Shown here: positions 39,370 through 62,055 of the stretch, in pieces
Numbering within the stretch: position 1 is the first letter of the stretch
Layout: each line of letters opens with the position of its first letter
Assembly (NCBI GenBank): GCA_963841435.1
Contig: CAWJCS010000006.1
Coordinates: 128,001-192,000 of the forward strand
Direction of reading: 5' to 3'
From: an uncultured delta proteobacterium
GTDB lineage: Bacteria; Myxococcota_A; Polyangia; Polyangiales; Polyangiaceae
DNA: 64,000 nucleotides
The notes under the pieces: generated by a model
Seen by the model: the letters and a program-made list of their open reading frames with translations, nothing else
Told to the model about the DNA's origin: nothing
Databases searched by the model: none
Program-made: the position numbers and the translations under genes

Positions 39370-40835
39370 TTCGTGGTGAGGTAGTTCGAGGAGTACTTGA
39401 AGTGCGGGATCCTCGAAGAGGGTTGTCTACACCTCGTGTGCCGGAGCTGCGGCTACTCGCAGGTCGTGGCCTTGAGCTGCAAGAAGCGCGGCTTCTGCCC
39501 GGGCTGCCTGGGCCGGCGGATGGCCGATACGGCCGTCCACTTGGAGGAGCGCGTGCTGCCGGCCGTGCGAGTGCGCCATTGGATCTGCTCTCTGCCCTGG
39601 GGCCTCAGGGCGCTGCTCGGCTACGACCGGGAGCTGTGCGCCAAGGTCGTGAGCGCGTTCGTGGGCGAGCTCTGCCGCTCGCTGAAGAGGAGAGCAAAGC
39701 GACAGCTCGGGCTCGCGAGCGTCGCGCAAGCGCACACCGGCGCCGTCTGCGCCGTGCAGAGGACGGACGGGGCCCTCCGGCTCAACGTCCATCTCCACGT
39801 GCTCTCGCTCGACGGCGTCTACGTGCGCGACTCCGAGAGCGCCGCGCTCGTGTTCGAAGAGCTCGGCACGCCCAGCCACGCCGAGGTGCTCGACGTGGCC
39901 CGGCACACCGCCGAGCGCGTCGACAGGCTGCTCCGAAAGAGCGGGCGAAGCCTCGAGCGCGAGGGCGACGACGCCGTGCCCGAGCTCGTGCTCGACGAGC
40001 CGGGGCTCGCCTCCTGCTACGCGGCCGCCGCTCAGGGCATCAGCGTGGGCGGCGAGCGAGCGGGACTGCCCCAGCTCAGGCTCGTGTTCGGCACCGGCGC
40101 CGCTGCCGAGAGAGCCGAGCCCCGCGCCGACGACCCGGTCGCCGACCACCGGGGCGTCAACGTGCACGCCAAGCAGTCCGTCGACGGCCGCGACCGACGA
40201 CAGCTCGAAAGACTCTGCCGCTATGTCACGCGGCCTCCGGTTGCACAGGACCGGCTCGCTCGCCTGCCAGACGGCTCGCTCGAGCTCCGCCTCAAGCACC
40301 CGTGGAAGGACGGCACGCGCGCCGTCGTGCTCGAACCGGATGATCTCTTGGTCCGGCTCGTCGCCTCGGTGCCCCCGCCGCGCTGGCATTTACTTCGGTA
40401 CTTTGGCGTCATCTCGAGCCATTCGCGACTGCGCTCAGAAGTGGTCCCGCATACGCCCGCTGATCCAAGTGCCACCGCGCCGCCGCCTGCTCCGGGCGAT
40501 CAGCTCGAGCTCGCGCTCGCCGCCGAGGCGGCTCGCAAGCTGCTCGCGCGCCTTGGGCTCGGTCCGCGTCCGCCGCCGGCACCCAACCCACCGCCGCTCG
40601 GGCAGCTCGCGCTGCCGTTCCCGCGGTGAGCCGGCCCAATCCGGCTTCGCCTTGGCCGAGCGTGCGTGCGCTTGCCGCCCCAAGACCCGAAAAGCCGGCC
40701 CTCTTCCGCTCCCCCTCCTGCTCTTTTGCCCTCTCGCCCCTCTCGCCTCCCCACCGCGGCGGGGTCAGGCGTCACCCACCAAAGCCTCCGCCCGCCCCTC
40801 ACCCTCGTTTTCCCAGTTCGAATGCCCTTGGCGCC
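39370..40835 (+). mobile_element. ISCR/IS91-like element, copy A1 (5'-truncated, amber stop at 39382, 126-nt internal deletion)
   Basis: Near-identical to 60463-62055; ends in the oriIS-like motif TTTTCCCAGTTCGAATGCCCTTGGCGCC. Confidence 0.9.
39397..40629 (+). pseudogene. IS91/ISCR-family transposase, truncated
   Basis: SCKKRGFCPGC zinc motif, NVHLH (HUH), LERLCRYVTRP, HLLRYFGV. Confidence 0.9.
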
Positions 40836-42195
40836 GACCAGGTCACGGAGCTGCGCCAGGCCCTCGAGCGCCGCGGCGGACGTTACGACGAGCATCTCGT
40901 CTTCCGCGATGCGGAGGTGAGCGGCGGGGTTTGGCAGCGCGACGGGCTGCAAGCGCTGCTCACCGCCGTCGAAACCGGGCGCGTGCGTCGTGTCTTTGTC
41001 GAGGACGTGAGCCGCCTCTCACGCGACAAGGAAGATGCCGCGCGACTCGAGAAGACCTTCGACTACCACGGGGTCTCGATCGTCACGCTCGACGGTATGA
41101 CCTACGACGGAAGCGTCGGCTCATCACTCGCGTTCACGTTTCAGAGCGCTGGGGCTGCCCAGTACCTTCGCGACTTGGGCGCCAAGACGCGCCGTGGGTT
41201 GCGCGGCGCGCACCGTGAAGGGAAGAGCACGGGCGGCCGCTGCTACGGCTTCAAGGTCGCGGCTGGGAAGCTCGAGGTCGACGAGACCGAAGCCGCCACC
41301 GTGAAGCTCATCTTCACCCTGTACCTCGAGGGGCATGGCTACGCGGTGATCGCGCAGAAGCTGAACGAGCGCGGCGTACCTGCGCCTCGCAGCCGTCGAC
41401 GCGCGGGGATCGGCTGGATGCACTCGTGCATCCGCGAAATGCTTCGCAACCCGAAGTACGTCGGCGAATTCGCGTTCGGCGTCCGGAAGTGGCAGCGGCA
41501 CCCAACCACGCGCAGGCGCGTCGCGCGCACCAACCATGACGCGGACGTACTGCGAACAAATCGCCCGGAGCTCACGGTCGTCGATCGGCAGACGTGGGAC
41601 GCGGTGCAAGCGCTGCTCGCGAAGCACGCGAAGAACTACAAGGCGCGCGCCGTCCCCCACGGCAGGACGAACTACTTGCTGACCGGCTTGCTTCGCTGCG
41701 GCTGCTGCGGAGCCCCGATGCAGATCATGGGCGGCAGCACCGAGCGCTATTACCGCTGCGTCGCCAACCGAAAGCGCGGGACCTGCTCGAACAGGCTCAG
41801 CGTGCGCGAGGGGCTCACCCGAACGCGCATCCTCGCGGCCGTGAGCGAGGCGCTGGCTACGCCCAAAGCCATCGCCTACGTACGCCAGCGACTCGCCGAG
41901 CGCGCCGGCTCCCTGTCGCGCGACGCCGGCCGCGAGGTAGCCGAGCGCTCCGGGCGCCTTGAGCGCACCGAGGAGCGCGTCCGAGGCCTGATCACCATGC
42001 AGGCCGAGGGCGACCGCTCTCCAATGGTTTCCGAGATGCGGGCCGACCTCGAGGCACAGGCCGCCCAGGACCGCGCCGCAATCGCCGACCTCCGAACCAT
42101 GGCATCGGCGCCCATCCGTCTCCCGCCGGTCGACCTGCTCATCGAGCGCGTGTTCGCGCTCCGCGCTCTCGCCGAGTCCCAGAACGTCCAGAGCG
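40836..42195 (+). pseudogene. Large serine recombinase lacking its N-terminal catalytic motif and its C-terminus
   Basis: DQ...FRDAEVSG..RDGLQALL, EDVSRLSRD, GGRCYG, NPKYVG, YLLTGLLRCGCCGAPM; no YARxS upstream. Confidence 0.85.
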
Positions 42196-43592
42196 CTGCT
42201 GCCGTGCGTGCGCATTCGGCATTGGATCTGTTCCTTGCCCTGGGGCCTCAGAGCCTTGCTCGGCTACGACCGCGAGCTCTGCGCGAAGGTCGTGAGCGCG
42301 TTCGTCGGTGAGCTCAGCCGCTCGCTCAAGAAGAGAGCGAAAGGAGAGTTCGGCCTTGCGAGCGTCGAGGATGCGCACACCGGCGCCGTCTGCACCGTGC
42401 AGAGGACGGACGGGGCTTTGCGACTAAACGTCCATCTTCATGTTCTCGCCCTCGACGGCGTGTACGTCCGCGATACGGAGAGCGGCGCGCTCGTGTTCGA
42501 GGAGCTCGGCACGCCCAGCCACGTGGAGGTACTAAACGTCGCACGCCGCACCGCCGAGCGCATCGACAGGCTGCTCGGAAAGAGCGGCCGGAGCCTCGAG
42601 CGGGAAGGGGACGAGCCCGTGCCCGAGCTCCTCTCCGACGAGCCGAGCCTGGCCTCGTGCTATGCGGCCGCTGCCCAGGGCATCAGCGTGAGCGGCGAGC
42701 GAGCGGGAAAGCCCCAGCTCAGGCTCGTCCTCGGCACTGGCGCCACTGCCGAAGGAGCCGAGCTCAACCCGGACGAGCCCGTGGCCGAGCACCTCGGCGT
42801 CAACATCCACGCCAAGCAGTCGGTCGACGGGCGTGATCGCCGGCAGCTCGAGCGTTTGTGCCGTTACATCACGCGGCCTCCTGTTGCTCAGGAAAGACTC
42901 GAGCGGCTTGCCGACGGCCAGCTCGAGCTCCGACTCAAGCATGCGTGGAAGGACGGCACGCGCGCCGTCGTGCTCGAGCCCGACGACTTGCTGGTCCGGC
43001 TCGTCGCCGCGGTGCCCCCGCCACGCTGGCATTTACTTCGCTACTTCGGCGTCCTCTCGAGCCACTCACGGCTCCGCCGAGAAGTTGTTCCGCACCCGCC
43101 CGCTGATCCGAGTGCTACCGCGCCTCCGCCTGCTCCGGGCGATCAGCTCGAGCTCGACCTCGACGCTGACGCTGACGAGCCTGCTCCGAGAAAAAGATGG
43201 GCCTGGCTGCTCAGACATGTGTTCAAGGCAGATTTGGATATTTGTCCGCGCTGCGGTGGACCGATGCGCTGGCTCGAGGCGGCGGCTACCCGAGAGTCTG
43301 CTCGTGACCTGCTCGCTCGGCTCGGGCTCGGGCCCAGGCCGCCGCCGGCTCCACCCCGCACGCCGCTCGCGCAGCTCACGCTGCCGTTCGCGAGGTGAGC
43401 CGGCTTGCGCTGGTCGCTGCGCCAGGCGAGCGTCCGCGCGTTCTGGGTTCGGGGAGCTCTGGCACCTCAGAGCCTCCTTCCGCCTCGTCCACGACAGCAC
43501 GTCCACCCCATAGGCGTGCGTTCTTACGGCCTCGCCGGCCTCGCCGTGGGCCCCGCCCGGGACCTTTTGCCAGATCGTTTCGCCTAGGCGCC
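42195..43592 (+). mobile_element. ISCR/IS91-like element, diverged variant B (5'-truncated; transposase remnant 42208-43398)
   Basis: Homologous transposase with many substitutions; different 3' non-coding region but conserved end TTTTGCCAGATCGTTTCGCCTAGGCGCC. Confidence 0.9.
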
Positions 43593-44750: not shown

Positions 44751-47429
44751 ATGCGAAGGTGGATGACGCCATTCCTTGGTGCTAAAGGGACCGTGGTGAT
44801 TGCCGTCCTTTCGGCGGGATGCGCTGGACGCGGCGACGATGTGGGGGGGGGTGAGACAACCTCCTACGCGCAGGACGCGATCACGGTTCCCTTCTCGCTT
44901 CCGATCCCCGTAGGTCTTCACCCAGGAAAATTGGTCCTCGGCGCTACAGGCACCATCCGGGTCAACGACCGAGCGGAGATCCTCGTACCATCTTTCGGGA
45001 TCCCGTTCGGGGACATCGCGGCGATGGGGCCAGGCGGCGAGACCAACATCGGTGTCGATGCGCGCGTGAGCAGGATCTGGGCCCGGCACTCGATTCTGTT
45101 CCGTCATCCCGCCAACGTGTCCTTTTACAAGACCTCGGCCACGGTTCAGTCGCAAGGCACGACGATGTTCGCCGATCCAGACGAGAATCGCGAGCAAGTC
45201 ACCATCCGCCAGGACCCCATCTGGACCGCGAGCTTCACGGTTCCGACCAACCAAGCGTATGTCAGCATCGAGCCCGGGTACACGGCCGCCATTACACCAG
45301 GCGACCGCGGGAACTACACCGTCAAGGGCACGCTGACACTCAACGGTGGCGGTACCTACTCCTTCGCAAGCTTCGATCTCGAGCCCACGGGCGTCGTGCA
45401 GCTCTCGGATCCAGCGAACACCACCGTCGTGGTTGGCTCCAACCTGATCCTCCACACGCAACCTGGGGCGCCGCTCTTCGGCGCAAACGGGCTCGTCTTC
45501 GCCTACCTCGGGACGTCGGCGGCGCAGGTCGAAAGAGGCTTCAAGGGGGACTTGTTCTTGGCGCCGCAGGCAGACATCAGCGTCAAGAGTCACTCGTTCG
45601 CGAACTTCTACGGCAAGAACATCACCGTGTTCGAAGGGATCCGCGTCACGGGCGTGCCCGTGCTCGGGCCGAGAGCCGTTGGACTGCTTCTACCCACAGA
45701 GTCGGTGACCGGGCTCGGCGTGATGGGTTCGGGTTTTCCGGGCGGCGACGAGATGGCCAGTGCGCTGCTGCCGCCTGCGTTCGCTCCGCAATGCAGCTCG
45801 GCGACTCCGATCGCCCTCGTGAGCCACCACTCGCGTTCTGTGGTCCGTGCGAATGTTAACCTACCCGGTGGCGCTTTCCTCAACGTTCAGGACATCACGC
45901 CCGGGTTCCCCGGCGATCCTTCCGCGTGTATCCCCACCGTGTTTCCGAATTTCTTTCAGATTGAGCCGTGGCTAGCGCCACTCTATCCGTCCACGGTGCC
46001 GGACCCGAACGCGATCGCGTACTACGGCCCGAGCCTCACAGATAACCTGATCGCGCGGCTCCCCGGAGGTCGAGCTCTGCAAGTCGGGCTCACAAGCCGC
46101 GTTTGCGCTGATCCCCCCGGGCCATTGGCGGCGGGCTGCCCTGCGATGATGTTGGAGGCGGCTGCGTGCAACCCCTTCCTGAGCCCCAACGTGTGCGCAT
46201 ATGGCGGTGGCGTGCCAGCTGACGCGAATACCGACAAGAACTGCCTTTGCGTCGACCCGGAGGGCGACGAAGTCACAGCCGGAGCGGCGTTCACCCCGGT
46301 GTGGGTCTGCCGCACGAGGCGAATTGAAGGGGGGGCACTGGCAGTACGGATGTCATCAGACTGCGGCAGTGGGTGGAACTCGGGCGCGCTGGACTTATAC
46401 CAGCTCGGGGTGACTGCGTTGCCCCCGAACCCGCCCGACGGGCTTCGGAACGTGGATAGACCTGATCTGTACGTCAACCCCTTCGATGATCGCGTCTTCG
46501 TCTCGGCGAATTGGGGCCCCGGTTTCGCGATCACGCAGAACGTCGTCGTCGAGGGCAGACCAAAGAGCGCGATGAACCCCCAGACGATGCAGTGGTCCGT
46601 GTTCCGCAACGATGCGAGTTCGGTGGCCTATGCGCCTCGAGTCATGACCACGGTCCGCGACGACCGTGCCTTACTGTCCCTGTCACCGCGGACGTACGGG
46701 CCGTTCGTCCACTTCGCGAGCGCCTATTGCATCAACGAAAGACCCATGCTCAACGTCCAGACGCCGTTCGGTCCGCGCCAATGGGACCTAGCGGGGACTA
46801 ATGCCGCACCAGAAGCGCTCTGCCGCCAGGTCCCCAAGGGTACCAACGGCATGCCCTTCTTCGGTATTCATTTCGGCCCCAGCATCGCAGCGATATCATC
46901 TTCTCCCCCGCGCTTTCTCATCGCCTATTCGGGAAAGACCGACACGGACTTTGAGCGTACCAACCTGTACGAGGTGACGCTGCGGAGCGCCGGCGGCTAT
47001 GCGGCCGCCCCGGAAATCGAGCCCCTCGCTACCTTCGTAACCGGGGCGCCGCCAAATGGACACGTGATCTTTCCCCAGCTCGTTCAGGCCGACCATCTCG
47101 CAGGGTCTGACCTCGGGTTTGATGAGCCCGTGATCCTGCGCATTGCGTCCGTGGTTGGCGACACGGTCAAAGAACATGCGTTCGGAATCTACTCGGGGCT
47201 GATCGGGCCCTCCCACCTGCTCACGACTTGGTCGCTCGCCTCCGCATTCCCGGGCCAGGTGTGCAGCGACTCCATCGACTTCGAATGCTTCGTAGGCGAC
47301 TACCGCTACGGTTCGCTAATGGACAAGTCGGGCGCCACGCTCCGATTTTTCGTGCCCTGGATTGGCGGCAACCCTGGAGGCGCGGTGAGCACCTCCATTC
47401 AGGCAGCAGTCTTCAATGTTAGCCCGTAA
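44751..47429 (+). CDS. Large hypothetical lipoprotein (892 aa)
   Basis: SAGC lipobox; N-terminal beta-solenoid-like region, Cys-containing middle, FVGDY motif near the C-terminus. Confidence 0.75.
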   Translation: MRRWMTPFLGAKGTVVIAVLSAGCAGRGDDVGGGETTSYAQDAITVPFSLPIPVGLHPGKLVLGATGTIRVNDRAEILVPSFGIPFGDIAAMGPGGETNIGVDARVSRIWARHSILFRHPANVSFYKTSATVQSQGTTMFADPDENREQVTIRQDPIWTASFTVPTNQAYVSIEPGYTAAITPGDRGNYTVKGTLTLNGGGTYSFASFDLEPTGVVQLSDPANTTVVVGSNLILHTQPGAPLFGANGLVFAYLGTSAAQVERGFKGDLFLAPQADISVKSHSFANFYGKNITVFEGIRVTGVPVLGPRAVGLLLPTESVTGLGVMGSGFPGGDEMASALLPPAFAPQCSSATPIALVSHHSRSVVRANVNLPGGAFLNVQDITPGFPGDPSACIPTVFPNFFQIEPWLAPLYPSTVPDPNAIAYYGPSLTDNLIARLPGGRALQVGLTSRVCADPPGPLAAGCPAMMLEAAACNPFLSPNVCAYGGGVPADANTDKNCLCVDPEGDEVTAGAAFTPVWVCRTRRIEGGALAVRMSSDCGSGWNSGALDLYQLGVTALPPNPPDGLRNVDRPDLYVNPFDDRVFVSANWGPGFAITQNVVVEGRPKSAMNPQTMQWSVFRNDASSVAYAPRVMTTVRDDRALLSLSPRTYGPFVHFASAYCINERPMLNVQTPFGPRQWDLAGTNAAPEALCRQVPKGTNGMPFFGIHFGPSIAAISSSPPRFLIAYSGKTDTDFERTNLYEVTLRSAGGYAAAPEIEPLATFVTGAPPNGHVIFPQLVQADHLAGSDLGFDEPVILRIASVVGDTVKEHAFGIYSGLIGPSHLLTTWSLASAFPGQVCSDSIDFECFVGDYRYGSLMDKSGATLRFFVPWIGGNPGGAVSTSIQAAVFNVSP

Positions 47430-48665: not shown

Positions 48666-48763
48666 AGCGGAGGGCGGGGGAGCGGGAGCTGGCACTCGGA
48701 GCTAGGTCGCCATCTTGGCGCTCCGCGCGGGCGGGGCTGAGCGGCGGCAGGCGCGTCTTGGTC

Positions 48764-48960
48764 GGCGCCAAGGTGAAACGAACTGGGAAAATCGTGCTGA
48801 GGGACGGCAGCGAGCCGGGGTAGCGGGCCCCAGCGGGCCCCCCCGACGAGGATGACCGCGCCTGAGCGTAGTTTCGCGAGCGGCCTGCGAACCTCGTAGT
48901 GCGGGCGGACAGCGAGCCACTCGGGCGTGGGCAAGATCGCACCCGCCCGAGCAAGACCAC
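48764..48960 (-). mobile_element. Orphan oriIS-like end of a third ISCR variant, no transposase (far boundary uncertain)
   Basis: Minus strand reads ATTTTCCCAGTTCGTTTCACCTTGGCGCC (48792-48764), sharing features of both the A and B ends. Confidence 0.7.
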
Positions 48961-49037
48961 AATGGGGTGAACGGCCTATCCGAGTCCGAACGAGGCTAGG
49001 AAGGGTCCGCTCCCGGCTGCCTCGCGAATGAAATCGA

Positions 49038-49061
49038 CACGCCCGGCTTTCGCCGGGCGTG
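49038..49061 (-). terminator. GC hairpin immediately 3' of the RNase P RNA fragment
   Basis: CACGCCCGGC-GAAA-GCCGGGCGTG perfect stem. Confidence 0.6.
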
Positions 49062-49223
49062 GTCGCAGAGCTCGTAAGCCGGGTTCTGTTCTTCGTGCGA
49101 GTCGCCTCGCGCGAAGCGGCGGTCATTCCTCTGGGACGCGCGTCGCCGCGCGCCTCGAGCGGCCTACCCGGGAGCTCGGGCGGGCAGCCCTCGAACGCTC
49201 CTCTATGTGGCCTTGCTCCGGAT
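49062..49223 (-). ncRNA. rnpB: 3' half of bacterial type-A RNase P RNA (5' part missing)
   Basis: CCGGAGCAAGGCCACAUAG, P15 GGGUAGGCC, P18 with GCGA loop, AGAGGAAUGA, P19 hairpin, ACAGAACCCGGCUUAC. The expected GGUAAAC and GAGGAAAGUCC are absent upstream. Confidence 0.9.
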
Positions 49224-49366
49224 TTGCTGCCCACCCCCGGCCTGCTCGGCGCGTGCTCGCGTGCTCGGCAGGGTCGGGGTGCTCACCGTGAGCGAGTGTC
49301 CGTCCGCCCGGCCGCACCCGGTGACGACGCCCCCGGCGGCGGCGCGGCGCGGCAGACTCGGGGGCG

Positions 49367-49703
49367 ATGGAACGCTGGACGACGGACGAGGCGCGGGAAG
49401 TTCTCGGGCGATGGCGCGCGAGCGGCGAATCGGCTCGAGCGTACGGGCGCGAGGAGGGCATCGATCCGCAGCGGCTGTTTTACTGGCGGAGGAAACTGGG
49501 AAGCGCAGCGAAACGCGGACCGAAGCGGCCCGAGCGTGCGATCGCGCGGTTGGTGCCGGCGGTGGTCCGGGTCGAGAGCGCGACGGGGGACGAGCGTGCG
49601 GTCGTCGTGCGCCTGTCGAGCGGAGTGATCGTCGAAGTCGAACGCGGCGCGCGTGCGGCCCGAGTGGCTGGCTACGCTCGTCGGCGAACTCGCGAGGCGA
49701 TGA
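49367..49703 (+). CDS. tnpA: IS66 accessory protein TnpA (apparent frameshift near 49655)
   Basis: WRASGESARAYGREEGI...LFYWRRKL HTH and VRLSSGVIVEV. Confidence 0.75.
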
Positions 49704-49706
49704 GCC

Positions 49707-50087
49707 GTGCTGCTCTTGCCGCGCGCCGTGCGCGTGTACGTGGGGACGGAGCCGGTTAATCTCAGAAAGTCGTTCGACGGCCTGTCGAACGAAGTCCGCG
49801 AGGTGCTCCGGCGCGATCCGCTGAGCGGGCACGTCTTCGTGTTCCTCAACCGGCGAAAGACGATGGTGAAGCTTCTTCTGTGGACTCGCGGCGGCTTCAC
49901 GATTTTGCACAAACGGCTCGAGCAGGGGCGCTTCACTTTTACGAAGAAGGTGACGAGCGAGGCGAAAAGCGTGGAGCTCGAGGTGCACGAGCTTTCGATG
50001 TTGCTCGAGGGCATCGACGCTCGCGTCGTGAGCACGCAGAAGCGCTGGGAGCCACCGCTGCACGCGCGGGCAACTGTGTCGCCGTGA
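49707..50087 (+). CDS. tnpB: IS66 accessory protein TnpB
   Basis: PVNLRKSFDGL, DPLSGHVFVFLNRR..VKLLLW, KRLEQGRF, LLEGID. Confidence 0.95.
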   Translation: MLLLPRAVRVYVGTEPVNLRKSFDGLSNEVREVLRRDPLSGHVFVFLNRRKTMVKLLLWTRGGFTILHKRLEQGRFTFTKKVTSEAKSVELEVHELSMLLEGIDARVVSTQKRWEPPLHARATVSP

Positions 50088-50159
50088 CGGTACGTGATCC
50101 CACGTGACAACGCGCGATTCTTCTTGCTCCTTTCGATCGCGATGAAATAGAAACGCGGA

Positions 50160-51260
50160 GTGAGCGGAGCGACGAAGAGCACGAGCAAGGAGCGGAGGGG
50201 GCCGGCGCTCGACATGCTCAAGGAGCTCGCGCAAGCGCACACCGGCGCCGTCTGCGCCGTGCAGAGGACGGACGGGGCCCTCCGGCTCAACGTCCATCTC
50301 CACGTGCTCTCGCTCGACGGCGTCTACGTGCGCGACTCCGAGAGCGCCGCGCTCGTGTTCGAAGAGCTCGGCACGCCCAGCCACGCCGAGGTGCTCGACG
50401 TGGCCCGGCACACCGCCGAGCGCGTCGACAGGCTGCTCCGAAAGAGCGGGCGAAGCCTCGAGCGCGAGGGCGACGACGCCGTGCCCGAGCTCGTGCTCGA
50501 CGAGCCGGGGCTCGCCTCCTGCTACGCGGCCGCCGCTCAGGGCATCAGCGTGGGCGGCGAGCGAGCGGGACTGCCCCAGCTCAGGCTCGTGTTCGGCACC
50601 GGCGCCGCTGCCGAGAGAGCCGAGCCCCGCGCCGACGACCCGGTCGCCGACCACCGGGGCGTCAACGTGCACGCCAAGCAGTCCGTCGACGGCCGCGACC
50701 GACGACAGCTCGAAAGACTCTGCCGCTATGTCACGCGGCCTCCGGTTGCACAGGACCGGCTCGCTCGCCTGCCAGACGGCTCGCTCGAGCTCCGCCTCAA
50801 GCACCCGTGGAAGGACGGCACGCGCGCCGTCGTGCTCGAACCGGATGATCTCTTGGTCCGGCTCGTCGCCTCGGTGCCCCCGCCGCGCTGGCATTTACTT
50901 CGGTACTTTGGCGTCATCTCGAGCCATTCGCGACTGCGCTCAGAAGTGGTCCCGCATTCGCCCGCTGATCCAAGTGCCACCGCGCCGCCGCCTGCTCCGG
51001 GCGATCAGCTCGAGCTCGCGCTCGATGCCGACAGTGACGAGCCCGCTCCGAGAAAGAGATGGGCCTGGCTTCTCAAGCATGTGTTCGCGGCAGATTTGGA
51101 TACTTGCCCGCGCTGTTCGGGGCCGATGCGTTGGATGGAGGCAGCGGCCACCGCCGAGGCGGCTCGCAAGCTGCTCGCGCGCCTTGGGCTCGGTCCGCGT
51201 CCGCCGCCGGCACCCAACCCACCGCCGCTCGGGCAGCTCGCGCTGCCGTTCCCGCGGTGA
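50160..51260 (+). CDS. Chimeric ORF: about 23 aa putative IS66 TnpC N-terminus fused to the ISCR transposase catalytic domain
   Basis: MSGATKSTSKERRGPALDMLKEL then AQAHTGAVC... identical to copy A from 50227. Confidence 0.75.
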   Translation: MSGATKSTSKERRGPALDMLKELAQAHTGAVCAVQRTDGALRLNVHLHVLSLDGVYVRDSESAALVFEELGTPSHAEVLDVARHTAERVDRLLRKSGRSLEREGDDAVPELVLDEPGLASCYAAAAQGISVGGERAGLPQLRLVFGTGAAAERAEPRADDPVADHRGVNVHAKQSVDGRDRRQLERLCRYVTRPPVAQDRLARLPDGSLELRLKHPWKDGTRAVVLEPDDLLVRLVASVPPPRWHLLRYFGVISSHSRLRSEVVPHSPADPSATAPPPAPGDQLELALDADSDEPAPRKRWAWLLKHVFAADLDTCPRCSGPMRWMEAAATAEAARKLLARLGLGPRPPPAPNPPPLGQLALPFPR

Positions 51261-51466
51261 GCCGGCCCAATCCGGCTTCGCCTTGGCCGAGCGTGCGTGC
51301 GCTTGCCGCCCCAAGACCCGAAAAGCCGGCCCTCTTCCGCTCCCCCTCCTGCTCTTTTGCCCTCTCGCCCCTCTCGCCTCCCCACCGCGGCGGGGTCAGG
51401 CGTCACCCACCAAAGCCTCCGCCCGCCCCTCACCCTCGTTTTCCCAGTTCGAATGCCCTTGGCGCC
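50227..51466 (+). mobile_element. ISCR/IS91-like element, copy A2 (5'-truncated)
   Basis: Near-identical to 60816-62055 including the oriIS-like end. Confidence 0.9.
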
Positions 51467-53557: not shown

Positions 53558-55876
53558 TCAGGCCACCGCGCGTCGCTGGTACAGGTACTTCTGAAAGTCG
53601 GCAAAGACGCGGCCGATTTCGTCGGGCCGGCCCAGGTCGGCCACCGCGTCCGCGATGGAGTTCTGATAACGGAGCCGCAAAAGGGGCGTCAGCTTCTCCT
53701 GGTCGAGCTCCTCGACCCCGACGCTCACGTAGTGCGACAGGACGAAGTCGAGAAAGGCCTGCTGCTTGCTGTCGAAGTTCGCGCTGATGTCGAGCTTCGC
53801 AGTGATCGCTCGCTGTTCGCGCGTCACCGGCGTGAGGGCGTACGCGACGTTGGCGAGCACGTCGAACAGGTCGCTTTTCTCAGCGTCGATGATCTTCTGC
53901 ATCTCGGCGAGCTGCTCGCTGCCAAAGCCCTTTTCCGCGAGACCCTCGAGGAGCTTCTTCCTGGTGCCTGGCGCGCTCCACAGCGCGCGCAGCTCGGCTT
54001 CGTCCTTGAAAAAGTCGGGCAGCTTGCCGAACAGCATTTCCATGAACTGCTGGGCGGACATCGGCGTTCCGTCGGGGTGCCAGAACGTCGTGCACATCAT
54101 GTGCTGGATGACGCGCGCCTTGCCGTCGGCGAGCTTCACTTTGACCTTCCCCCGCTTCGGATACTCCGACTTTTCCGGGTCTGCCACCGCGAGCTCCCCA
54201 CCGGGTGCTGCCGGGCGCTTGGGCTCGGGCTCGAGCGGCTCGCCGTCCCACTCCGGATCGCTGAAGTGCTGGTGGGCCTTCACGAAGTCATAAATCGTGA
54301 AGTAATCCTTGCCATCGTAGAGCCGCGTCCCGCGCCCGATGATCTGCTTGAACTCGATCATCGAGTTGACGGGGCGCATCAGTACGATGTTGCGGATGTT
54401 GCGAGCATCCACGCCGGTGGAGAGCTTCTGCGAGGTCGTGAGGATGGTGGGAATGGTCTTCTCGTTGTCCTGAAAATCACGCAGGTGCTGCTCGCCAAGC
54501 TCGCCATCGTCGGCCGTCACCCGCTGGCAATAGTTGGGGTCGGAGCTCGCCTTGGCCTGGTTCACGAGATCGCGGACGGCCAGGGCGTGGTCCTGCGTGG
54601 CGCAGAAAACGAGCGTCTTTTGGCGCTGGTCGATCTGATCCATGAGGACCTGCACCCGGTGCGCTTCGCGTTCCTTGATCTCGATGATCTTGTTGAAGTC
54701 CTTCTCCTGGTAGCGCTTGCCGCTTTCGACTTCACCCTCGATGAGCTTGTCGTCTGGCGTGTAGACGTACTCGTCGAGCGTCGTCGAGATCTGCTTCACC
54801 TTGAAGGGCGTCAGAAAGCCGTCGTTGATGCCCTGCTTCAGCGAATAGACGTACACGGGCTCGCCGAAGTAAGCGTACGTGTCCACGTTGTCCTTGCGCT
54901 TGGGTGTCGCGGTGAGACCCAGTTGCACCGCTGGGGCGAAGTACTCCAGGATCCCGCGCCAGTTGCTCTCGTCGTTCGCGCCGCCGCGGTGGCACTCGTC
55001 GATGATGATGATGTCGAAAAAATCGGGCGCGTACTCGCCGAAATAGGGCGATGGCCGCCCGTCCTTCGGCGGCCCGCTCATGAACGTCTGGAAGATCGTG
55101 AAGAAGAGGCTCCCGTTCTTGGGCACCTTGCCCTTCTTGCGGATGTCCGCCGGATCAATGCGCACGAGCGCATCTTCGGCAAACGCGGAGAAGGCGTTGT
55201 AAGCCTGATTCGCTAGGATGTTGCGGTCCGCGAGGAACAGAATGCGCGGCCGGCGCGTGGGCTCCCGGCTCAGACTCCAGCGGCTTTGGAACAGCTTCCA
55301 GGCGATCTGAAACGCGATGAAGGTCTTACCGGTGCCGGTCGCGAGGGTCAGCAGCATGCGCTGGCGGCCATCCGCGACCGCCTCCAGCACGCGTTCGACG
55401 GCGATGTCTTGGTAGTAACGGCTCGGGTGAGAGCCGCCCCTGTCCTCGAACGGTACGGCAGCGAAGCGATCGCGCCAGGCGTTGGCCTCAGCGAACGTCT
55501 CGGCCCACAGCTCGTTGGGTGTGGGGTAGCGCGACAGCTCGCCTTCACGGCCGTTGCCCATGTCGACGCCGTAGATGCCCTGGCCGTTCGTGGCATACGC
55601 GTAGCGAAGCTCCAGCTTGCCGGCGTAGTTCTTGGCTTGGGCCAGCCCCTCCGTGAGCGGCTTGTCCCAGGCCTTGGCCTCGGCAACGGCGAGCTTGCGG
55701 TTGCGGTACACGAGCACGTAGTCCGCGACCACCGGCTTGCCACGCCGGCCGAGCCCTTCGATGCGGCCGGGCGCGATCGGAAACTCGCGCAAAATCTTAC
55801 TGCCCTCGACGACGCCCCAGCCCGCCGCCGCCAATGCGGGGTCGACGTGCTCGGCTCTCGTCTCGGCTTCGTTCAT
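53558..55876 (-). CDS. hsdR: Type I restriction endonuclease subunit R (EcoAI/EcoEI-like)
   Basis: MNEAETR, ADY..AEAK nuclease, ATGTGKT, DECHR, LTATP, QIIGRGTR. Confidence 0.95.
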   Translation of the reverse strand: MNEAETRAEHVDPALAAAGWGVVEGSKILREFPIAPGRIEGLGRRGKPVVADYVLVYRNRKLAVAEAKAWDKPLTEGLAQAKNYAGKLELRYAYATNGQGIYGVDMGNGREGELSRYPTPNELWAETFAEANAWRDRFAAVPFEDRGGSHPSRYYQDIAVERVLEAVADGRQRMLLTLATGTGKTFIAFQIAWKLFQSRWSLSREPTRRPRILFLADRNILANQAYNAFSAFAEDALVRIDPADIRKKGKVPKNGSLFFTIFQTFMSGPPKDGRPSPYFGEYAPDFFDIIIIDECHRGGANDESNWRGILEYFAPAVQLGLTATPKRKDNVDTYAYFGEPVYVYSLKQGINDGFLTPFKVKQISTTLDEYVYTPDDKLIEGEVESGKRYQEKDFNKIIEIKEREAHRVQVLMDQIDQRQKTLVFCATQDHALAVRDLVNQAKASSDPNYCQRVTADDGELGEQHLRDFQDNEKTIPTILTTSQKLSTGVDARNIRNIVLMRPVNSMIEFKQIIGRGTRLYDGKDYFTIYDFVKAHQHFSDPEWDGEPLEPEPKRPAAPGGELAVADPEKSEYPKRGKVKVKLADGKARVIQHMMCTTFWHPDGTPMSAQQFMEMLFGKLPDFFKDEAELRALWSAPGTRKKLLEGLAEKGFGSEQLAEMQKIIDAEKSDLFDVLANVAYALTPVTREQRAITAKLDISANFDSKQQAFLDFVLSHYVSVGVEELDQEKLTPLLRLRYQNSIADAVADLGRPDEIGRVFADFQKYLYQRRAVA

Positions 55877-56916
55877 GGCTTGGGGGGCTTCGACTTCCTC
55901 GGCTTCGGCAGCTTCTCGAGCTGAGCTTCGATCTGCTTCAACGTCTCGAGCTCGCCCGCGCTTTCCAGCTCGCCTCTGCGGCGAGCCTCAAACTCCTCGT
56001 ATTCCCGCTCCGCGAGCGCGTCCGCCTGCTCGCGGCTGACCTTCCCAGCATCAGGCAAAATGGCGCGCTCGTTCAAGCGCAGAAAGTCGTCGAGCCGCGT
56101 TTGCCAGGTTTCGAGGAAGATTTGCTTCCGGCGGAGCGCCTGATCCTCGGCGAAATCCAGGAACATCACGACGATCCGGTTCAGCTGGCGGATCTCGTCT
56201 TCGCGCAGGTAGTTCTTCGCAATGGTCACATCGCGCTTGCGAACCACGCCGCCCTTCCACGTGGTCAGCCCCATGTTGGGCTGGTTGGCGTCGGCGCGTT
56301 CGGCGATCAGCTCGGGCGCCGTCTTGCCCGTGGCGGCAACATGCAGCTTGTTCTGCACCGTCTGGAAAAAGACCTGAGCCTCCGGGTCGGACGGCGAATA
56401 GTCCGCGGCAAGCGCCAGGATTTCGCGAACCCGCACGTACACGCGTTGCTCGCTCGAGCGGATCTCGCGGATGCGCTCGAGCAGCTCGTCGAAGTAGTCG
56501 GTCAGGCCGCTGGTGAGCGGACTCTTGAGCCGCTCGTCGTCCATGGTGAACCCCTTCACCAGGTACTCGCTGAGCCTGGCGGTGGCCCACTGGCGGAATT
56601 GCGTGCCGCGCCTGGACTTCACCCGGTAGCCGACCGCGATGATCGCCTCCAGGTTGTAGTGCTGCGTTTCGTAGCCCTTGCCGTCCGACGCAGTTATCCG
56701 GAATTTCCGGATAACTGCTTCCTCTACCAATTCGCCCTCCTCGAACACGTTCTGCAGGTGCTCGTTGATGGTGCGAACGTCCTTCTGAAAGAGCTCCGCC
56801 ATCAGCTTTTGCGTGAGCCAGATCGTCTCGTTCTCGAACCGGCACTGGATGCGCGTCCGCCCATCCTCTGTTTGGTAGAGGACGATGCTGCTTTCCGGGG
56901 CGGTGGGGTCCGGCAT
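55873..56916 (-). CDS. rhuM: Virulence protein RhuM-family protein
   Basis: IVLYQTEDG, WLTQKLMAELF, YNLEAIIAVGYRVKS.RGTQFRQWAT, IAKNYL. Confidence 0.9.
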   Translation of the reverse strand: MPDPTAPESSIVLYQTEDGRTRIQCRFENETIWLTQKLMAELFQKDVRTINEHLQNVFEEGELVEEAVIRKFRITASDGKGYETQHYNLEAIIAVGYRVKSRRGTQFRQWATARLSEYLVKGFTMDDERLKSPLTSGLTDYFDELLERIREIRSSEQRVYVRVREILALAADYSPSDPEAQVFFQTVQNKLHVAATGKTAPELIAERADANQPNMGLTTWKGGVVRKRDVTIAKNYLREDEIRQLNRIVVMFLDFAEDQALRRKQIFLETWQTRLDDFLRLNERAILPDAGKVSREQADALAEREYEEFEARRRGELESAGELETLKQIEAQLEKLPKPRKSKPPKP

Positions 56917-56935
56917 CGGGGGGCGACTAACGCGA

Positions 56936-58219
56936 CTAGAGCAGGCCGGTGAAGGCTTGGTGGAGGAGTGACTTCTTCAGTGCTGCGAGCGCGGTGAGCT
57001 TTTGTTGGTAGATGTTTTCGAGGCGTTGAGTTTCGGCCATCACCGTCTGAAGCCGAGAGACGACCGCTCGTTGCTCACCCAGCGTTGGTAGGGGTATCGC
57101 TATTTCTTTGATCTTTCCCAGGCTCAGGTTCTTTTGGCGGACGCCACGGCGCTCAAGAAGCAATCGGGGTTTGTCCGCATTGATCGCATTGAGAACAAAT
57201 TCAACATCAAGCTTCGCATTTGGCCGAATTCCAGCAATGGCTTGATTGAAGGCGCCATCGCGATCAAGGATAGACATCTTTAAGGCCGCAGTGTCATACA
57301 TACCGACGAGCAATGAGCCTTTCGGAAAGAGCTTTGCATTGGAGTTGGTTAGACCTGTGCTGGTTAGCCTTCTCTCGGGCTCGACCGTAAAGGTGGAATT
57401 TAACTCACCTGATGAATACCAGGGGATGTCACCACCCCAAAACTCCTTTTGCGAGACGAGGGGTGTGCCGCCGCTCTGAATGTCGGCAACATCGCCCAAC
57501 TTTTGCTCTGCCCACCCGTTGCGGCGTTGGGTGAAGACGGATCGGAGGTGGCTTTCAAACAGGGCGCGGGCGTTTTGGAGGTTCTTTTCGGCGTTGGCTT
57601 GGGCGGTGGCGAGGCCGGCAAACGCTTCGTCGAGCACACCTACGATCCGCTGCTGTTCGGGAAGCGGGGGGAGACAAATGTGGAATGCCTTTGCCTCGGG
57701 ATAGTAAATAGTCTGATGAACTGAGCCGCTCGCGAAGCGAAGTAGGTCGTCACCCTCGGCAACAAAGACATACTTGAGAAATTCGGGTTCGAGATCGTTG
57801 CCGCAGATCCAGTTCACAAAATCCTGACTCGTCGTCATGGGGCGACCCATCACAACGACATATCCAACCGAAGCAGTCCGCGAAAGGCAGACCGTACCCT
57901 CGGGAAGGACGCGCGCAGATGAATTCTGGGTGCCAAGCTCACTGATCGTCTCGCCCGTTTGTTGGATTCGCGCACCATCGTTCGCCCGTGCATCGGCGAT
58001 CCCAATCCACGGAATGCCACCACCCCAATAGTCAGGATGCTGCCTGCTTGGCGTGTGACCGGATTCGAGCGTGGCTACCGAAGACAAGGCGGTCCACCGC
58101 CAGCCGGTCGGAGCGGGGGTTGCTGGCATTCCAACCGCCAACGCAAGCTTGGGCGGAATGCACCGGGTCGTCGCCTGCCGGCCTCCGGTTCTGCTTGTTC
58201 GAGCGGGGGCTGTAGTCAC
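56936..58219 (-). CDS. hsdS: Type I restriction-modification specificity subunit
   Basis: Two TRDs (SGHTPS and SGGTP), PPLPEQQRIV, LKKSLLHQAFTG; visibly lower GC. Confidence 0.95.
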   Translation of the reverse strand: MTTAPARTSRTGGRQATTRCIPPKLALAVGMPATPAPTGWRWTALSSVATLESGHTPSRQHPDYWGGGIPWIGIADARANDGARIQQTGETISELGTQNSSARVLPEGTVCLSRTASVGYVVVMGRPMTTSQDFVNWICGNDLEPEFLKYVFVAEGDDLLRFASGSVHQTIYYPEAKAFHICLPPLPEQQRIVGVLDEAFAGLATAQANAEKNLQNARALFESHLRSVFTQRRNGWAEQKLGDVADIQSGGTPLVSQKEFWGGDIPWYSSGELNSTFTVEPERRLTSTGLTNSNAKLFPKGSLLVGMYDTAALKMSILDRDGAFNQAIAGIRPNAKLDVEFVLNAINADKPRLLLERRGVRQKNLSLGKIKEIAIPLPTLGEQRAVVSRLQTVMAETQRLENIYQQKLTALAALKKSLLHQAFTGLL

Positions 58220-59679
58220 ACCAGCGCTCTGATGTTCTTCAGCACAGCCGCGCTCTGGGCGTCCAGAGAACCGATTTCTTCCATGATTTGCTTCGGCGTA
58301 CGATGCACAACTTCCTCGCCGACGTTGGGGTTCTTCACGGAAAGATCGAATGTCGTCGGGTCAATCGCCTTCGCATCCACGCTCCAGCTCTTGGGCGAGT
58401 TGGCAAACGTCTTTTGCAGCGTGATGAACTCGGCGAGATCGGCGTCGTTGAGCGGGTTGGTCTTGCCCATGCTGCGGCCCGGATCGAGCTGGTAGAACCA
58501 GACTTTGCGGGTGGGCGCGCCCTTTTCGAAGAAGAGCACGACAGTCTTCACGCCCGCGCCCTGGAACGTGCCGCTCGGGCAGTCGAGCACGGTGTGTAGG
58601 TTGCAGCTCTCGAGCAGCAGCTTGCGCAGGCTGACCGAGGCGTTGTCGGTGTTGGAGAGGAAGGTGTTCTTGATCACTACGCCGCCGCGGCCGCCGGCTT
58701 TCAGGATCTTGATGAAGTGCTGCAGGAATAGGAACGCGGTTTCGCCGGTGCGGATGGGAAAGTTTTGCTGCACTTCCGGGCGCTCTTTGCCGCCGAAGGG
58801 CGGGTTGGCCAGGACGACGTGGTAGCGGTCCTTCTCCTGAATGTCGGCCAGGTTTTCGGTGAGCGTGTTGGTGTGGATGATGTTCGGCGCTTCGATCCCG
58901 TGCAGGATCATGTTCATGACGCCGATCACGTAGGCGAGGGACTTCTTTTCCTTGCCGTAGAAGGTGCGCTCTTGCAGCGCGCGGTCCTGAGCGGTGGTGC
59001 GTTTAGGGTTGGCGTGTTGGAGGTAGTCGAAGGCCTCGCACAAGAAGCCTGCGGAGCCGACGGCACCGTCGTAGATGCGCTCGCCGAGCTCGGGGCGCAC
59101 GACTTGGATGATGGCGCGCTCCAGCGGGCGAGGTGTGTAGTACTCGCCGCCGTTGCGCCCGGCGTTGCCCATGTTCTTGATCTTGGCTTCGTACAGGTGG
59201 GAGAGCTCGTGCTTCTCGACCTGCGAGCCGAAGCGCAGCTCGTCGATGTGATCAATCACCTCGCGCAGGTTGTAGCCGCTGGTGATGCGGTTTTTGATCT
59301 CGCTGAAGATCTCCCCAATCTTGTATTCGATGGTGTTCGGCCCAGTCGCGCGCTGCTTGAACCCCATCAGGTAGGGAAAAAGCTTGCCGTTGACGAAGGC
59401 GGTCAGATCATCGCCGGAGAGGGCGACGTTGTGGTCGATCTGACCGTCCTTGGTCTTCGGCGCCGCCCAGGTTGGCCAGCGATACGCTTTGTCGAGGATG
59501 AAGTCGTACTTCCGCCCGTCGAGCTTCGCCTCGGTGGCCTTGTCGGCTTCGAGAGCGTCGAGGTACTTTAGAAAGAGCAGCCAGGAGCTCTGCTCGGTGT
59601 AGTCGAGCTCGCTAGTGCAGCCCGCGTCCTTCCAGAGGACATCGTTGACGTTCTTGAAAACCTGCTCAAACACGGTCAC
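58216..59679 (-). CDS. hsdM: Type I restriction-modification N6-methyltransferase
   Basis: GEYYTPR, IYDGAVGSAGFL, LANPPFG. Confidence 0.95.
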   Translation of the reverse strand: MTVFEQVFKNVNDVLWKDAGCTSELDYTEQSSWLLFLKYLDALEADKATEAKLDGRKYDFILDKAYRWPTWAAPKTKDGQIDHNVALSGDDLTAFVNGKLFPYLMGFKQRATGPNTIEYKIGEIFSEIKNRITSGYNLREVIDHIDELRFGSQVEKHELSHLYEAKIKNMGNAGRNGGEYYTPRPLERAIIQVVRPELGERIYDGAVGSAGFLCEAFDYLQHANPKRTTAQDRALQERTFYGKEKKSLAYVIGVMNMILHGIEAPNIIHTNTLTENLADIQEKDRYHVVLANPPFGGKERPEVQQNFPIRTGETAFLFLQHFIKILKAGGRGGVVIKNTFLSNTDNASVSLRKLLLESCNLHTVLDCPSGTFQGAGVKTVVLFFEKGAPTRKVWFYQLDPGRSMGKTNPLNDADLAEFITLQKTFANSPKSWSVDAKAIDPTTFDLSVKNPNVGEEVVHRTPKQIMEEIGSLDAQSAAVLKNIRALV

Positions 59680-60252: not shown

Positions 60253-62055
60253 CGCCGAAACGTGCGGCGTGAGGGCCGGGCATGCACCTTGTGACGCCGC
60301 TCGGCTGTGGGCCACCCGGCGCACGACCTCGAGCAGCACGGCACGCGCCGCCCCGACGGCTACGCCCGCCGCCGGCCGGAAGACACGGTGCTCTACCAGA
60401 CCGTGGCCGAGCGCTGGCCCCTGTTTCGCGAGCAGATGGAGCAGCAAGGCGGGTTGCCGAAGTTCGTGGTGAGGTAGTTCGAGGAGTACTTGAAGTGCGG
60501 GATCCTCGAAGAGGGTTGTCTACACCTCGTGTGCCGGAGCTGCGGCTACTCGCAGGTCGTGGCCTTGAGCTGCAAGAAGCGCGGCTTCTGCCCGGGCTGC
60601 CTGGGCCGGCGGATGGCCGATACGGCCGTCCACTTGGAGGAGCGCGTGCTGCCGGCCGTGCGAGTGCGCCATTGGATTCTGCTCTCTGCCCTGGGGCCTC
60701 AGGGCGCTGCTCGGCTACGACCGGGAGCTGTGCGCCAAGGTCGTGAGCGCGTTCGTGGGCGAGCTCTGCCGCTCGCTGAAGAGGAGAGCAAAGCGACAGC
60801 TCGGGCTCGCGAGCGTCGCGCAAGCGCACACCGGCGCCGTCTGCGCCGTGCAGAGGACGGACGGGGCCCTCCGGCTCAACGTCCATCTCCACGTGCTCTC
60901 GCTCGACGGCGTCTACGTGCGCGACTCCGAGAGCGCCGCGCTCGTGTTCGAAGAGCTCGGCACGCCCAGCCACGCCGAGGTGCTCGACGTGGCCCGGCAC
61001 ACCGCCGAGCGCGTTGACAGGCTGCTCCGAAAGAGCGGGCGAAGCCTCGAGCGCGAGGGCGACGACGCCGTGCCCGAGCTCGTGCTCGACGAGCCGGGGC
61101 TCGCCTCCTGCTACGCGGCCGCCGCTCAGGGCATCAGCGTGGGCGGCGAGCGAGCGGGACTGCCCCAGCTCAGGCTCGTGTTCGGCACCGGCGCCGCTGC
61201 CGAGAGAGCCGAGCCCCGCGCCGACGACCCGGTCGCCGACCACCGGGGCGTCAACGTGCACGCCAAGCAGTCCGTCGACGGCCGCGACCGACGACAGCTC
61301 GAAAGACTCTGCCGCTATGTCACGCGGCCTCCGGTTGCACAGGACCGGCTCGCTCGCCTGCCAGACGGCTCGCTCGAGCTCCGCCTCAAGCACCCGTGGA
61401 AGGACGGCACGCGCGCCGTCGTGCTCGAACCGGATGATCTCTTGGTCCGGCTCGTCGCCTCGGTGCCCCCGCCGCGCTGGCATTTACTTCGGTACTTTGG
61501 CGTCATCTCGAGCCATTCGCGACTGCGCTCAGAAGTGGTCCCGCATTCGCCCGCTGATCCAAGTGCCACCGCGCCGCCGCCTGCTCCGGGCGATCAGCTC
61601 GAGCTCGCGCTCGATGCCGACAGTGACGAGCCCGCTCCGAGAAAGAGATGGGCCTGGCTTCTCAAGCATGTGTTCGCGGCAGATTTGGATACTTGCCCGC
61701 GCTGTTCGGGGCCGATGCGTTGGATGGAGGCAGCGGCCACCGCCGAGGCGGCTCGCAAGCTGCTCGCGCGCCTTGGGCTCGGTCCGCGTCCGCCGCCGGC
61801 ACCCAACCCACCGCCGCTCGGGCAGCTCGCGCTGCCGTTCCCGCGGTGAGCCGGCCCAATCCGGCTTCGCCTTGGCCGAGCGTGCGTGCGCTTGCCGCCC
61901 CAAGACCCGAAAAGCCGGCCCTCTTCCGCTCCCCCTCCTGCTCTTTTGCCCTCTCGCCCCTCTCGCCTCCCCACCGCGGCGGGGTCAGGCGTCACCCACC
62001 AAAGCCTCCGCCCGCCCCTCACCCTCGTTTTCCCAGTTCGAATGCCCTTGGCGCC
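60253..62055 (+). mobile_element. ISCR/IS91-like element, copy A3 (longest; terIS boundary uncertain)
   Basis: Full-length transposase homology and oriIS-like end; candidate left-end hairpin CGCCG-AAACGTG-CGGCG at 60253-60269. Confidence 0.85.
60307..61849 (+). pseudogene. Full-length ISCR-type transposase with in-frame TAG (60475) and +1 frameshift (about 60677)
   Basis: YARRRPEDTVLYQTV..GLPKFVVR*FEEYLKCG; extra T relative to copy A1 (tggattctg vs tggatctg). Confidence 0.9.

Follow-up and report, generated by a model that had tools for sequence, protein, structure and literature searches.

Three 3' Fragments of the RNase P RNA Gene Behind One Hairpin-Rich Repeat: Probable Relics of Insertion with Gene-End Replacement

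What is half of an RNase P RNA gene doing among IS elements, with a repeat standing where its other half should be, and how did it get there? The stretch of DNA that raises the question, which we call the window, is 64,000 nt long (G000:C6:128001-192000, in which G000 is the source genome and C6 one of its contigs; window positions are given without a contig). An initial annotation had recognized the 3' half of rnpB at 49062..49223 and had offered three ways of explaining it: an attachment-site (att) duplication left by an integrating element, perhaps with a nearby serine recombinase as the enzyme; cargo captured by a rolling-circle element; or one piece of a split RNase P RNA. Here, we ask which of these survives, and we argue that the part worth following up is a small boundary element at the broken end of the gene, which links rnpB to a ribosomal protein gene (rpmB) and to Rhs genes.

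Results

The features of the window that matter for the argument are the following.

49059..49223, minus strand: 5'-truncated copy of rnpB (covariance model match and BLAST to intact rnpB)
49030..49061, minus strand: rnpB terminator hairpin (49038-49061) with the last ~8 homologous bases (..TCGATTTC; BLAST, alignment of relatives)
49224..49295, minus strand: element remnant, 3' terminal ~70 nt (nhmmer C6:177292-177227, profile positions 136-201, E 3.3e-10)
49296..50227, plus strand: left 932 nt of an IS66-family element, with an orfA-like ORF and TnpB_IS66 (99.9% identical to C5:898295-899225; PF05717, E 1.5e-31)
50223..51466, plus strand: IS91-family copy (Y2 transposase), 5'-truncated, right terminal repeat intact (99.8% identical to C6:188811-190055; PF04986)
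48763..48841, plus strand: solo IS91-family terminal repeat (GGCGCCAAGG..CGAACTGGGAAAA), 197 nt beyond the rnpB terminator

The fragment is real: it consists of the last (3') 165 nt of a gene for class A RNase P RNA, with the terminator hairpin adjoining, and its RNA-sense strand is the minus strand. Under E-value reporting, cmscan matched RF00010 to 49059-49252 (minus strand) with 80.5 bits and an E value of 2.4e-24; at the gathering threshold (a score of 100 for RF00010), the window gave no match, because half of the gene is missing and only about model positions 223-367 are truly aligned. These positions comprise J5/15, P15-P18, the conserved ACAGAACCCGGCUUA stretch, and the P1 3' strand; the fragment also holds a variable hairpin and the P4 3' strand, and the "match" to model positions 1-19 was forced onto unrelated sequence. 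By BLAST, 180 of 194 bases (93%) over window 49030-49223 are identical to intact rnpB, most of the differences lying in that one variable hairpin, between the P2 and P4 3' strands, which on our own reading of the sequence would still pair. Homology to the intact locus stops at ..TCGATTTC, ~8-12 nt beyond the terminator, and the downstream hairpin that had been noticed earlier is that terminator, common to intact rnpB and several close relatives.

At its 5' limit, the fragment ends at ...AUCCGGAGCAAG (read 3'->5'), just where it had been said to stop. When the intact gene is aligned to RF00010, the break point reads ..CCCCAUC and then, across the break, UGGAGCAAGG.. (written also as ..CCCCAUC and then CGGAGCAAGG..). 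The earlier placement of the break near the boundary between the S domain and the C domain holds, because the break falls within the closing helices of the specificity domain (those bracketed in the alignment), on their 3' strand. A functional class A RNase P RNA is full-length, with P1-P4 and a specificity domain, and the window fragment falls short of this.

Is there an intact gene elsewhere? A covariance-model search of all six contigs of G000 (7.78 Mb) gave four RF00010 matches: one full-length rnpB, which stands on another contig and is not identical to the fragment (G000:C4:576007-576390, 286.3 bits), and three 3' fragments, of which two, shorter than that of the window, are identical to each other (C4:550300-550417 and C5:897710-897827, 57.7 bits each). 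The same whole-genome search found no separate rnpB 5' half, and rnpA is present (C2:570800-571096). It is close to certain that the window piece is a dead partial duplicate and no split ribozyme: a nonfunctional, 5'-truncated copy of the 3' part of rnpB with its terminator.

The upstream neighborhood of intact rnpB is conserved in 19 of 19 same-genus loci compared, and downstream of the gene the sequence differs in nearly all relatives compared, starting just past the terminator. The 5' half of the G000 gene is at most 85% identical to that of any relative and its 3' half 92-94% identical to that of three, a contrast that is no evidence of mosaicism, because the 5'-half differences sit mostly in two hypervariable hairpins. 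Second copies are rare: among 41 genomes searched with the covariance model, only G000 had more than one RF00010 match, and in an order-wide sample, in which 167 of 301 genomes had an rnpB match, only G000 had two among the best 2 per genome. In one relative (G043), the intact rnpB is followed, 1.6 kb downstream and in the same orientation, by a 39-nt rnpB remnant that stands behind a low-GC lipoprotein-like gene. In another (G008), rnpB is split over two contig ends (C78 and C166) exactly at the G000 break base, with a 26-nt overlap on the 5' side; an assembly-graph branch, or a second path, at the break base is hinted at, nothing more.

What, then, lies on the other side of the break? All three fragments begin at the identical base and are joined there to one common, hairpin-rich repeat of ~190 nt. 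The window copy of this element, which covers the last 66 profile positions only, ends in ..GAGCACGCGAGCACGCGCCGAGCAGGCCGGGGGTGGGCAGCAA, fused to the first base of the rnpB fragment; it is the short palindrome that the initial annotation had seen between the fragment and the IS66 end. That end, too, was correctly named, since a complete IS66-family counterpart stands on C5: the window IS66 copy was inserted into the element after ~70 nt, and its own right side is cut by the 5'-truncated IS91-family copy.

Across the three fragments, the junction reads ..GGGCAGCAA and, past the break, A(T/G)C(C/T)GGAGCAAGG; the sequence before the break is ..GGCCGGGG(C)GTGGGCAGCAA and then A... The window fragment and the C4 and C5 fragments share an A in ..GGCCACAUAG.., where intact rnpB and 26 of 26 aligned relatives have G. 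This derived A, common to the fragments and absent from the intact gene and its relatives, points to a junction between element and rnpB that arose once and was later propagated. The base preceding the break is C in the window copy and in 24 of 26 relatives and T in the C4 copy and the intact gene; it lies 17 nt from the A/G site, and all four allele combinations occur, which suggests recombination or gene conversion among the rnpB copies.

The C4 fragment has the orientation of intact rnpB and lies 25.6 kb downstream of it, and its element is on the side that faces the gene. The C4 and C5 copies belong to a 1026-nt block (the fragment, the element, and the first 570 nt of an IS91-family copy) that is 99.8% identical at the two places. 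One 151-nt Logan contig (run X1, maybe the source sample) reproduces the C4/C5-type junction; the joints peculiar to the window (49224-49296) are spanned by none of the short Logan contigs aligned.

A profile of the element built from seven copies detected five copies in G000 (nhmmer), besides which there are three shorter variants:

C6:177292-177227: the window remnant
C4:550596-550406: beside the C4 rnpB fragment
C5:897531-897721: beside the C5 rnpB fragment
C4:705638-705444: beside a truncated rpmB
C3:1543091-1542959: beside a YD/Rhs fragment

The element consists of a long GC hairpin (GCCCCxCCC...GGGxGGGGC), a GCGCGCG hairpin, and a conserved 3' end, and it has no Rfam match at E <= 1 (one unit of the relative G006 searched); the other Rfam families matched in the window were sRNAs at chance level. 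Integron attC sites have RYYYAAC/GTTRRRY ends, and the element differs, ending in GCCCCACCC... and ...GTGGGCA, with no integrase (IntI) nearby. Parts of it are widespread among 47 same-genus genomes, and its exact terminal motif occurs in 4 of the 47 (G000, G006, G041, and G056). A search of public genome contigs with an end motif one base longer returned only a G056-like contig, and a search of public metagenome contigs returned none; these blanks are uninformative on the window variant, because the motif was one base longer than the version in the window and G006.

All eight copies in G000 precede, in sense, a 5'-truncated gene copy of which a longer copy exists elsewhere: rnpB in three cases, rpmB in one, and Rhs/YD in four. 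Between the conserved end GTGGGCA and each flank lie 4-11 variable bases. In the rpmB case, the flank at C4:705444 is a 5'-truncated rpmB whose parent lies 11 kb upstream on the same strand:

C4:705215-705659: region of the truncated rpmB copy, outside the window
C4:716712-716949: region of intact rpmB (gene at C4:716725-716949), outside the window

The two genes match over 223 nt, from codon 6 to 13 nt beyond the stop, with 98.7% identity, and the Pfam family Ribosomal_L28 recognizes both (E 3e-18 for the truncated copy and 1.5e-20 for the intact gene). The 11-kb interval between them holds genes for an aldo/keto reductase, a GH15 enzyme, an AI-2E transporter, and a type III PKS/UbiA cluster, which need not be foreign, because their GC3 is host-like. 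Neither here nor at rnpB could an empty site be compared, the flanks being too diverged among relatives.

The Rhs cases are on C3. The flank at C3:1542959 is a YD/Rhs fragment, and three more Rhs fragments (C3:1538414, 1548601, and 1530534) start at a common base behind the shorter element variant; a continuous parent Rhs sequence is found at C1:420356. In relatives, too, the element precedes orphan tips of Rhs core ends (an array in G006, and G056). On G006:C353, four copies stand in a row at spacings of 1.4-2.3 kb. Directly behind two of them comes the Rhs core end (NPQGLNRYAYVMNNPLRFTDPSG), each time with a different toxin tip; of the other two, one is truncated and the last abuts a convergent kinase gene. 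The flank on G056:C722 codes for YD repeats. For neither of two further flanks tested (G006:C191 and G041:C38) did the genome in question yield a parent gene.

A second companion of the element is a gene of the DUF559 family (PF04480), which stands divergently beside it in many loci of relatives; the element lies upstream of, and divergent from, 8 of 9 DUF559 genes examined there. G000 itself is different in that 0 of its 6 full DUF559 genes have an element-profile match and that none of its element copies adjoining rnpB or rpmB has a DUF559 gene beside it. Three of its DUF559 genes are 0.84-1.05 kb from Rhs fragments, two of these behind a short element variant.

The window also carries four IS91-family copies with a Y2 transposase (39397-40629, 42208-43398, 50160-51260, and 60743-61849), members of a family with many copies genome-wide and with terminal repeats GGCGCCAAGG..CGAACTGGGAAAA; most lack the left repeat (ISCR-like), and solo ends are scattered. 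At 40626-42311, 7 kb from the fragment, is the serine recombinase ORF (561 aa, with Resolvase, Recombinase, and Zn_ribbon_recom domains), the only full-length copy in G000. The ORF is an in-frame fusion (window 39397-42311) in which the right end of an IS91 copy supplies the codons for the first ~70 residues; this IS91 end (C6:168835) recurs at 4 other sites.

Discussion

How could a dead half of rnpB come to share a boundary with pieces of rpmB and rhs? We think it probable that these are relics of att-type junctions, left by DNA that enters conserved genes together with a substitute for their 3' end, and that IS elements later scattered them; our judgment takes in this whole reading, the mechanism included. 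It is the first of the three original explanations in modified form and the best supported of them: the duplication stands, given the C4 fragment downstream of intact rnpB, direct and with its element gene-proximal, and the analogous duplication of rpmB, and the nearby serine recombinase, to which we return, falls away as the enzyme.

An intact gene, a 5'-truncated copy downstream of it in direct orientation, a stop at the gene end, and an element on the proximal side would, by analogy, be the product of insertion with 3'-end replacement. As in a displaced target fragment, each rnpB piece runs from a fixed point toward the gene 3' end, and the window copy reaches the terminator; the duplicated segments end just beyond the gene (~8-12 nt past the terminator in the window, 13 nt past the stop in rpmB). 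What is copied is in either case a gene end that is complete and goes no further, as in the replacement modules of att-type elements. The pattern is consistent with site-specific recombination at the element end, and it would be equally consistent with a single homologous crossover by a circular molecule carrying the element and the 3' part of the gene.

The events would have run as follows. DNA would have entered rnpB at one fixed position, within the 3' strand of the helices closing the specificity domain, and would have carried its own rnpB 3' half and terminator; the essential gene, on this proposal, stayed whole because the insert brought that replacement. The 3' half that was displaced or carried would have come to be joined to the insert at its far end, which would be the conserved ~190-nt hairpin-rich element that in relatives adjoins the gene for a DUF559 (Vsr-like) nuclease. 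Formed once, the junction would then have been spread and rearranged, both through recombination and through the IS66 and IS91 elements in which G000 abounds; the window copy would have been moved by this IS-driven mosaic, or else would be a copy borne by a cassette. The insertion with replacement, the direction of the events, the enzyme, and any role of DUF559 are what we infer.

Several observations stand against this att-type reading. In the C4 rnpB pair (25.6 kb) and the rpmB pair (11 kb), target gene and 3' fragment enclose the intervening DNA in one orientation, as they would an island, but the window copy and intact rnpB are on different contigs. Neither interval holds an integrase or recombinase among its longer ORFs (Pfam; cutoff of 110-170 aa), and 0 of 13 PF00589 matches in G000 fall inside either. 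The rpmB interval has host-like GC3, the elements adjoining rnpB are without DUF559, two of two further flanks have no parent gene, one G006 copy abuts a kinase gene, and extra rnpB 3' pieces are rare among relatives.

Known systems offer partial precedents. Islands and prophages in tRNA and tmRNA genes (the Islander/TIGER class) regenerate the gene and displace its 3' fragment, and our loci resemble them in the direct arrangement of intact gene and 5'-truncated 3' copy around inserted DNA, in a fragment with a set start inside the gene and an end shortly beyond it, and, for rnpB, in a conserved structured RNA as target. They differ in the target (rnpB and rpmB), in having no integrase in the intervals, in a boundary made of a ~190-nt hairpin element linked to a DUF559 gene, and in that the window copy lies away from its gene. 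Lambdoid phage 21 and e14 replace the last ~165 bp of icd; as there, a long 3' end (~160-220 nt) would come from the insert and the old end be left as a pseudogene piece, but those elements encode their own integrase, and none was found here. Orphan toxin-immunity arrays of Rhs and CDI systems consist of displaced 3' gene ends, each starting with a short piece of conserved core. Our boundary element is present in such arrays of G000, G006, and G056, yet in our case it borders, besides these, parts of a gene for an RNA and of one for a ribosomal protein. In IS91/ISCR elements, one-ended rolling-circle transposition mobilizes DNA flanking the upstream side of the transposase gene; many copies here likewise lack a left end, but the junction is not at an IS91 end.

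The nearest precedent for the target is phage phiEf11, which, according to a 2025 paper, integrates into ffs, the 4.5S RNA gene, by a 27-nt core and a tyrosine integrase encoded beside attP (PMC12540744). The likeness lies in a housekeeping RNA gene other than a tRNA gene serving as attachment site, and the difference lies in that core and integrase (PMC12540744). The same paper presents ffs as a novel RNA-gene att site; among RNA-gene targets, its introduction names tRNA/tmRNA and csRNA genes and leaves rnpB unmentioned (PMC12540744). In the full-text literature that we searched, no integration into rnpB was reported (catalogues of island targets may sit in supplements), nor did we find DUF559 described as a mobile or homing gene or linked to Rhs, or a module of DUF559 and hairpin at Rhs orphan boundaries.

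If no integrase is at hand, what did the inserting? The only recurrent neighbor of the element is the DUF559 nuclease gene, and a tentative extension of the att-type reading, one on which we would not wager at even odds, would give these Polyangiaceae-like soil bacteria a mobile cassette of an undescribed, integrase-free kind, with the ~190-nt hairpin element beside a DUF559 gene at one end and a replacement 3' gene part at the other. Recombination at a fixed point, possibly following a nuclease cut, would bring such a cassette into rnpB, rpmB, or rhs; there it would keep the gene whole, push the old 3' end downstream, and so build Rhs orphan arrays. The same process would leave spare halves of an essential ribozyme gene.

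A skeptic might prefer to see in the element a passive folding repeat, a hot spot at which replication template switches or end-joining connect unrelated DNA. Local duplications would then have yielded the rnpB, rpmB, and Rhs pieces by accident, and no mobile cassette would be involved. The element does fold strongly (-74.5 kcal/mol, z -2.9), its joints to the flanks are loose (those 4-11 variable bases), a 35-nt copy of the junction was spliced into an IS91 end at microhomology (C5:883914-883948), and both the missing recombinase and the two parentless flanks in relatives would fit. Chance, however, should not choose a 5'-truncated gene in sense as the flank in 8 of 8 G000 copies, nor halt the duplicated rnpB and rpmB segments just beyond the gene end, nor give the Rhs orphans of one array the same start base. 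The last 42 nt of the element, moreover, are identical in G000 and G006 despite a difference of ~20% in the remainder. We regard a hot spot of this kind as unlikely.

Less likely still is the second of the original explanations, in which an IS91-family element without a terminating end read into neighboring rnpB and carried a piece of it off. There is no shortage of such elements, with four copies in the window and a solo end 197 nt from the fragment, and at C4 and C5 a Y2-transposase gene without a left repeat lies ~0.3 kb from the fragment, reads away from it, and belongs with it to the duplicated 1026-nt block. Captured DNA should abut the IS end, but what abuts the fragment is the repeat element, and at C4 and C5 the element and 77 nt separate fragment and IS. 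The element also occurs without an adjoining IS91 in other genomes and at C4:705444, and the IS91 copy on the window side is of another subfamily than that at C4 and C5 (83% identity). The tetranucleotide GTTC/CTTG, the IS91 termination signal, is absent at the distal boundary of the C4/C5 block, and capture from within rnpB would require an earlier insertion that split an essential gene. As the origin of the junction, then, rolling-circle capture fails; IS91-family elements may have helped to move secondary copies, and for the C4/C5 block, such secondary spread would be plausible.

Could RNA have been the intermediate? A reverse transcriptase would have copied the 3' end of the rnpB precursor and switched to an element RNA, and the cDNA would have been integrated. 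Window homology does end right after the terminator hairpin and a T-rich tail, as expected of a transcript end, but the rpmB copy ends 13 nt beyond its stop without a terminator, and no reverse transcriptase was seen near any copy. Moreover, the C4 rnpB and rpmB copies lie 25.6 and 11 kb downstream of their parents in direct orientation, and the chance of landing there at random in 7.8 Mb is, by our own arithmetic, ~0.1-0.3% each. We give this route very little credence.

Still less can be said for the serine recombinase as the maker of an attL or attR, for all its three domains and its place only 7 kb from the fragment. An att site of a large serine recombinase calls for a complete enzyme with its catalytic N terminus. 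Here, the Resolvase match begins at profile position 17, so that the gene is 5'-truncated and lacks the region presumed to hold the catalytic serine; its first ~70 residues are an IS91 right end of the sort found at 4 other sites, and no other full-length copy exists in the genome. To our knowledge, serine integrases normally require no long duplicated target segment.

Last, a split RNase P RNA, or a truncated ribozyme that still works, has well-formed helices to recommend it and is refuted by an intact gene scoring 286.3 bits, a 5' half found nowhere in the genome, the presence of rnpA, and fragments joined to repeat and IS elements.

What does the att-type reading mean for the organism and beyond? 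Taken alone, the fragment is a pseudogene scar, and RNase P production is unchanged. As a target of attachment or duplication, rnpB was not found in the literature that we searched. One boundary element connects spare parts of a gene for an RNA, of one for a ribosomal protein, and of genes for polymorphic toxins, which hints at a common insertion mechanism, apparently without an integrase in cis and with a small DUF559 nuclease as its only recurrent neighbor. If confirmed, it would be a concrete and testable route for building Rhs orphan arrays.

Further Observations

Other sequences met along the way deserve a place in the record. The window contains, at 44751-47429 (plus strand), an ORF of 892 aa with lower GC (~63%) that matches no Pfam family and has no usable atlas match. 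G000 holds 5 or more paralogues of it, 37-41% identical, and one of these stands 2.8 kb away from the rnpB fragment on C4; in relatives, the matches are only weak and partial (8 of 46). A type I restriction-modification operon (HsdR, a RhuM-family gene, HsdS, and HsdM) adjoins the IS mosaic at 53558-59679 (minus strand).

Two candidates for rnpB fragments in relatives were rejected: a match in G010 lies inside a coding region and was judged a chance one, and G056:C362, a candidate fragment junction, is a divergent rnpB (76% identity) at a contig start. At G043:C85:56821-56971, on another contig than the intact gene, is a 151-nt rnpB 3' piece with terminator and a different 5' boundary, ~300 nt downstream of a tRNA- or tmRNA-like 3' end; the locus is possibly a stack of attachment-site remnants.

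On C3, the region 1530000-1550000 is an Rhs/YD orphan array, in which four fragments with the same start base stand behind element variants, interleaved with DUF559 genes, a HicB-like small ORF (named from its translation), and IS66 copies. The 35-nt junction copy at G000:C5:883914-883948 consists of 14 nt of element end and 17 nt of rnpB, and the microhomology at which it entered the IS91 terminal region is short. Finally, a 179-nt contig from another soil metagenome (run X2), aligned at window 49224-49272, joins the conserved element end to rpmB-like sequence that reads ..IKTMRWQHV.. on the other strand.
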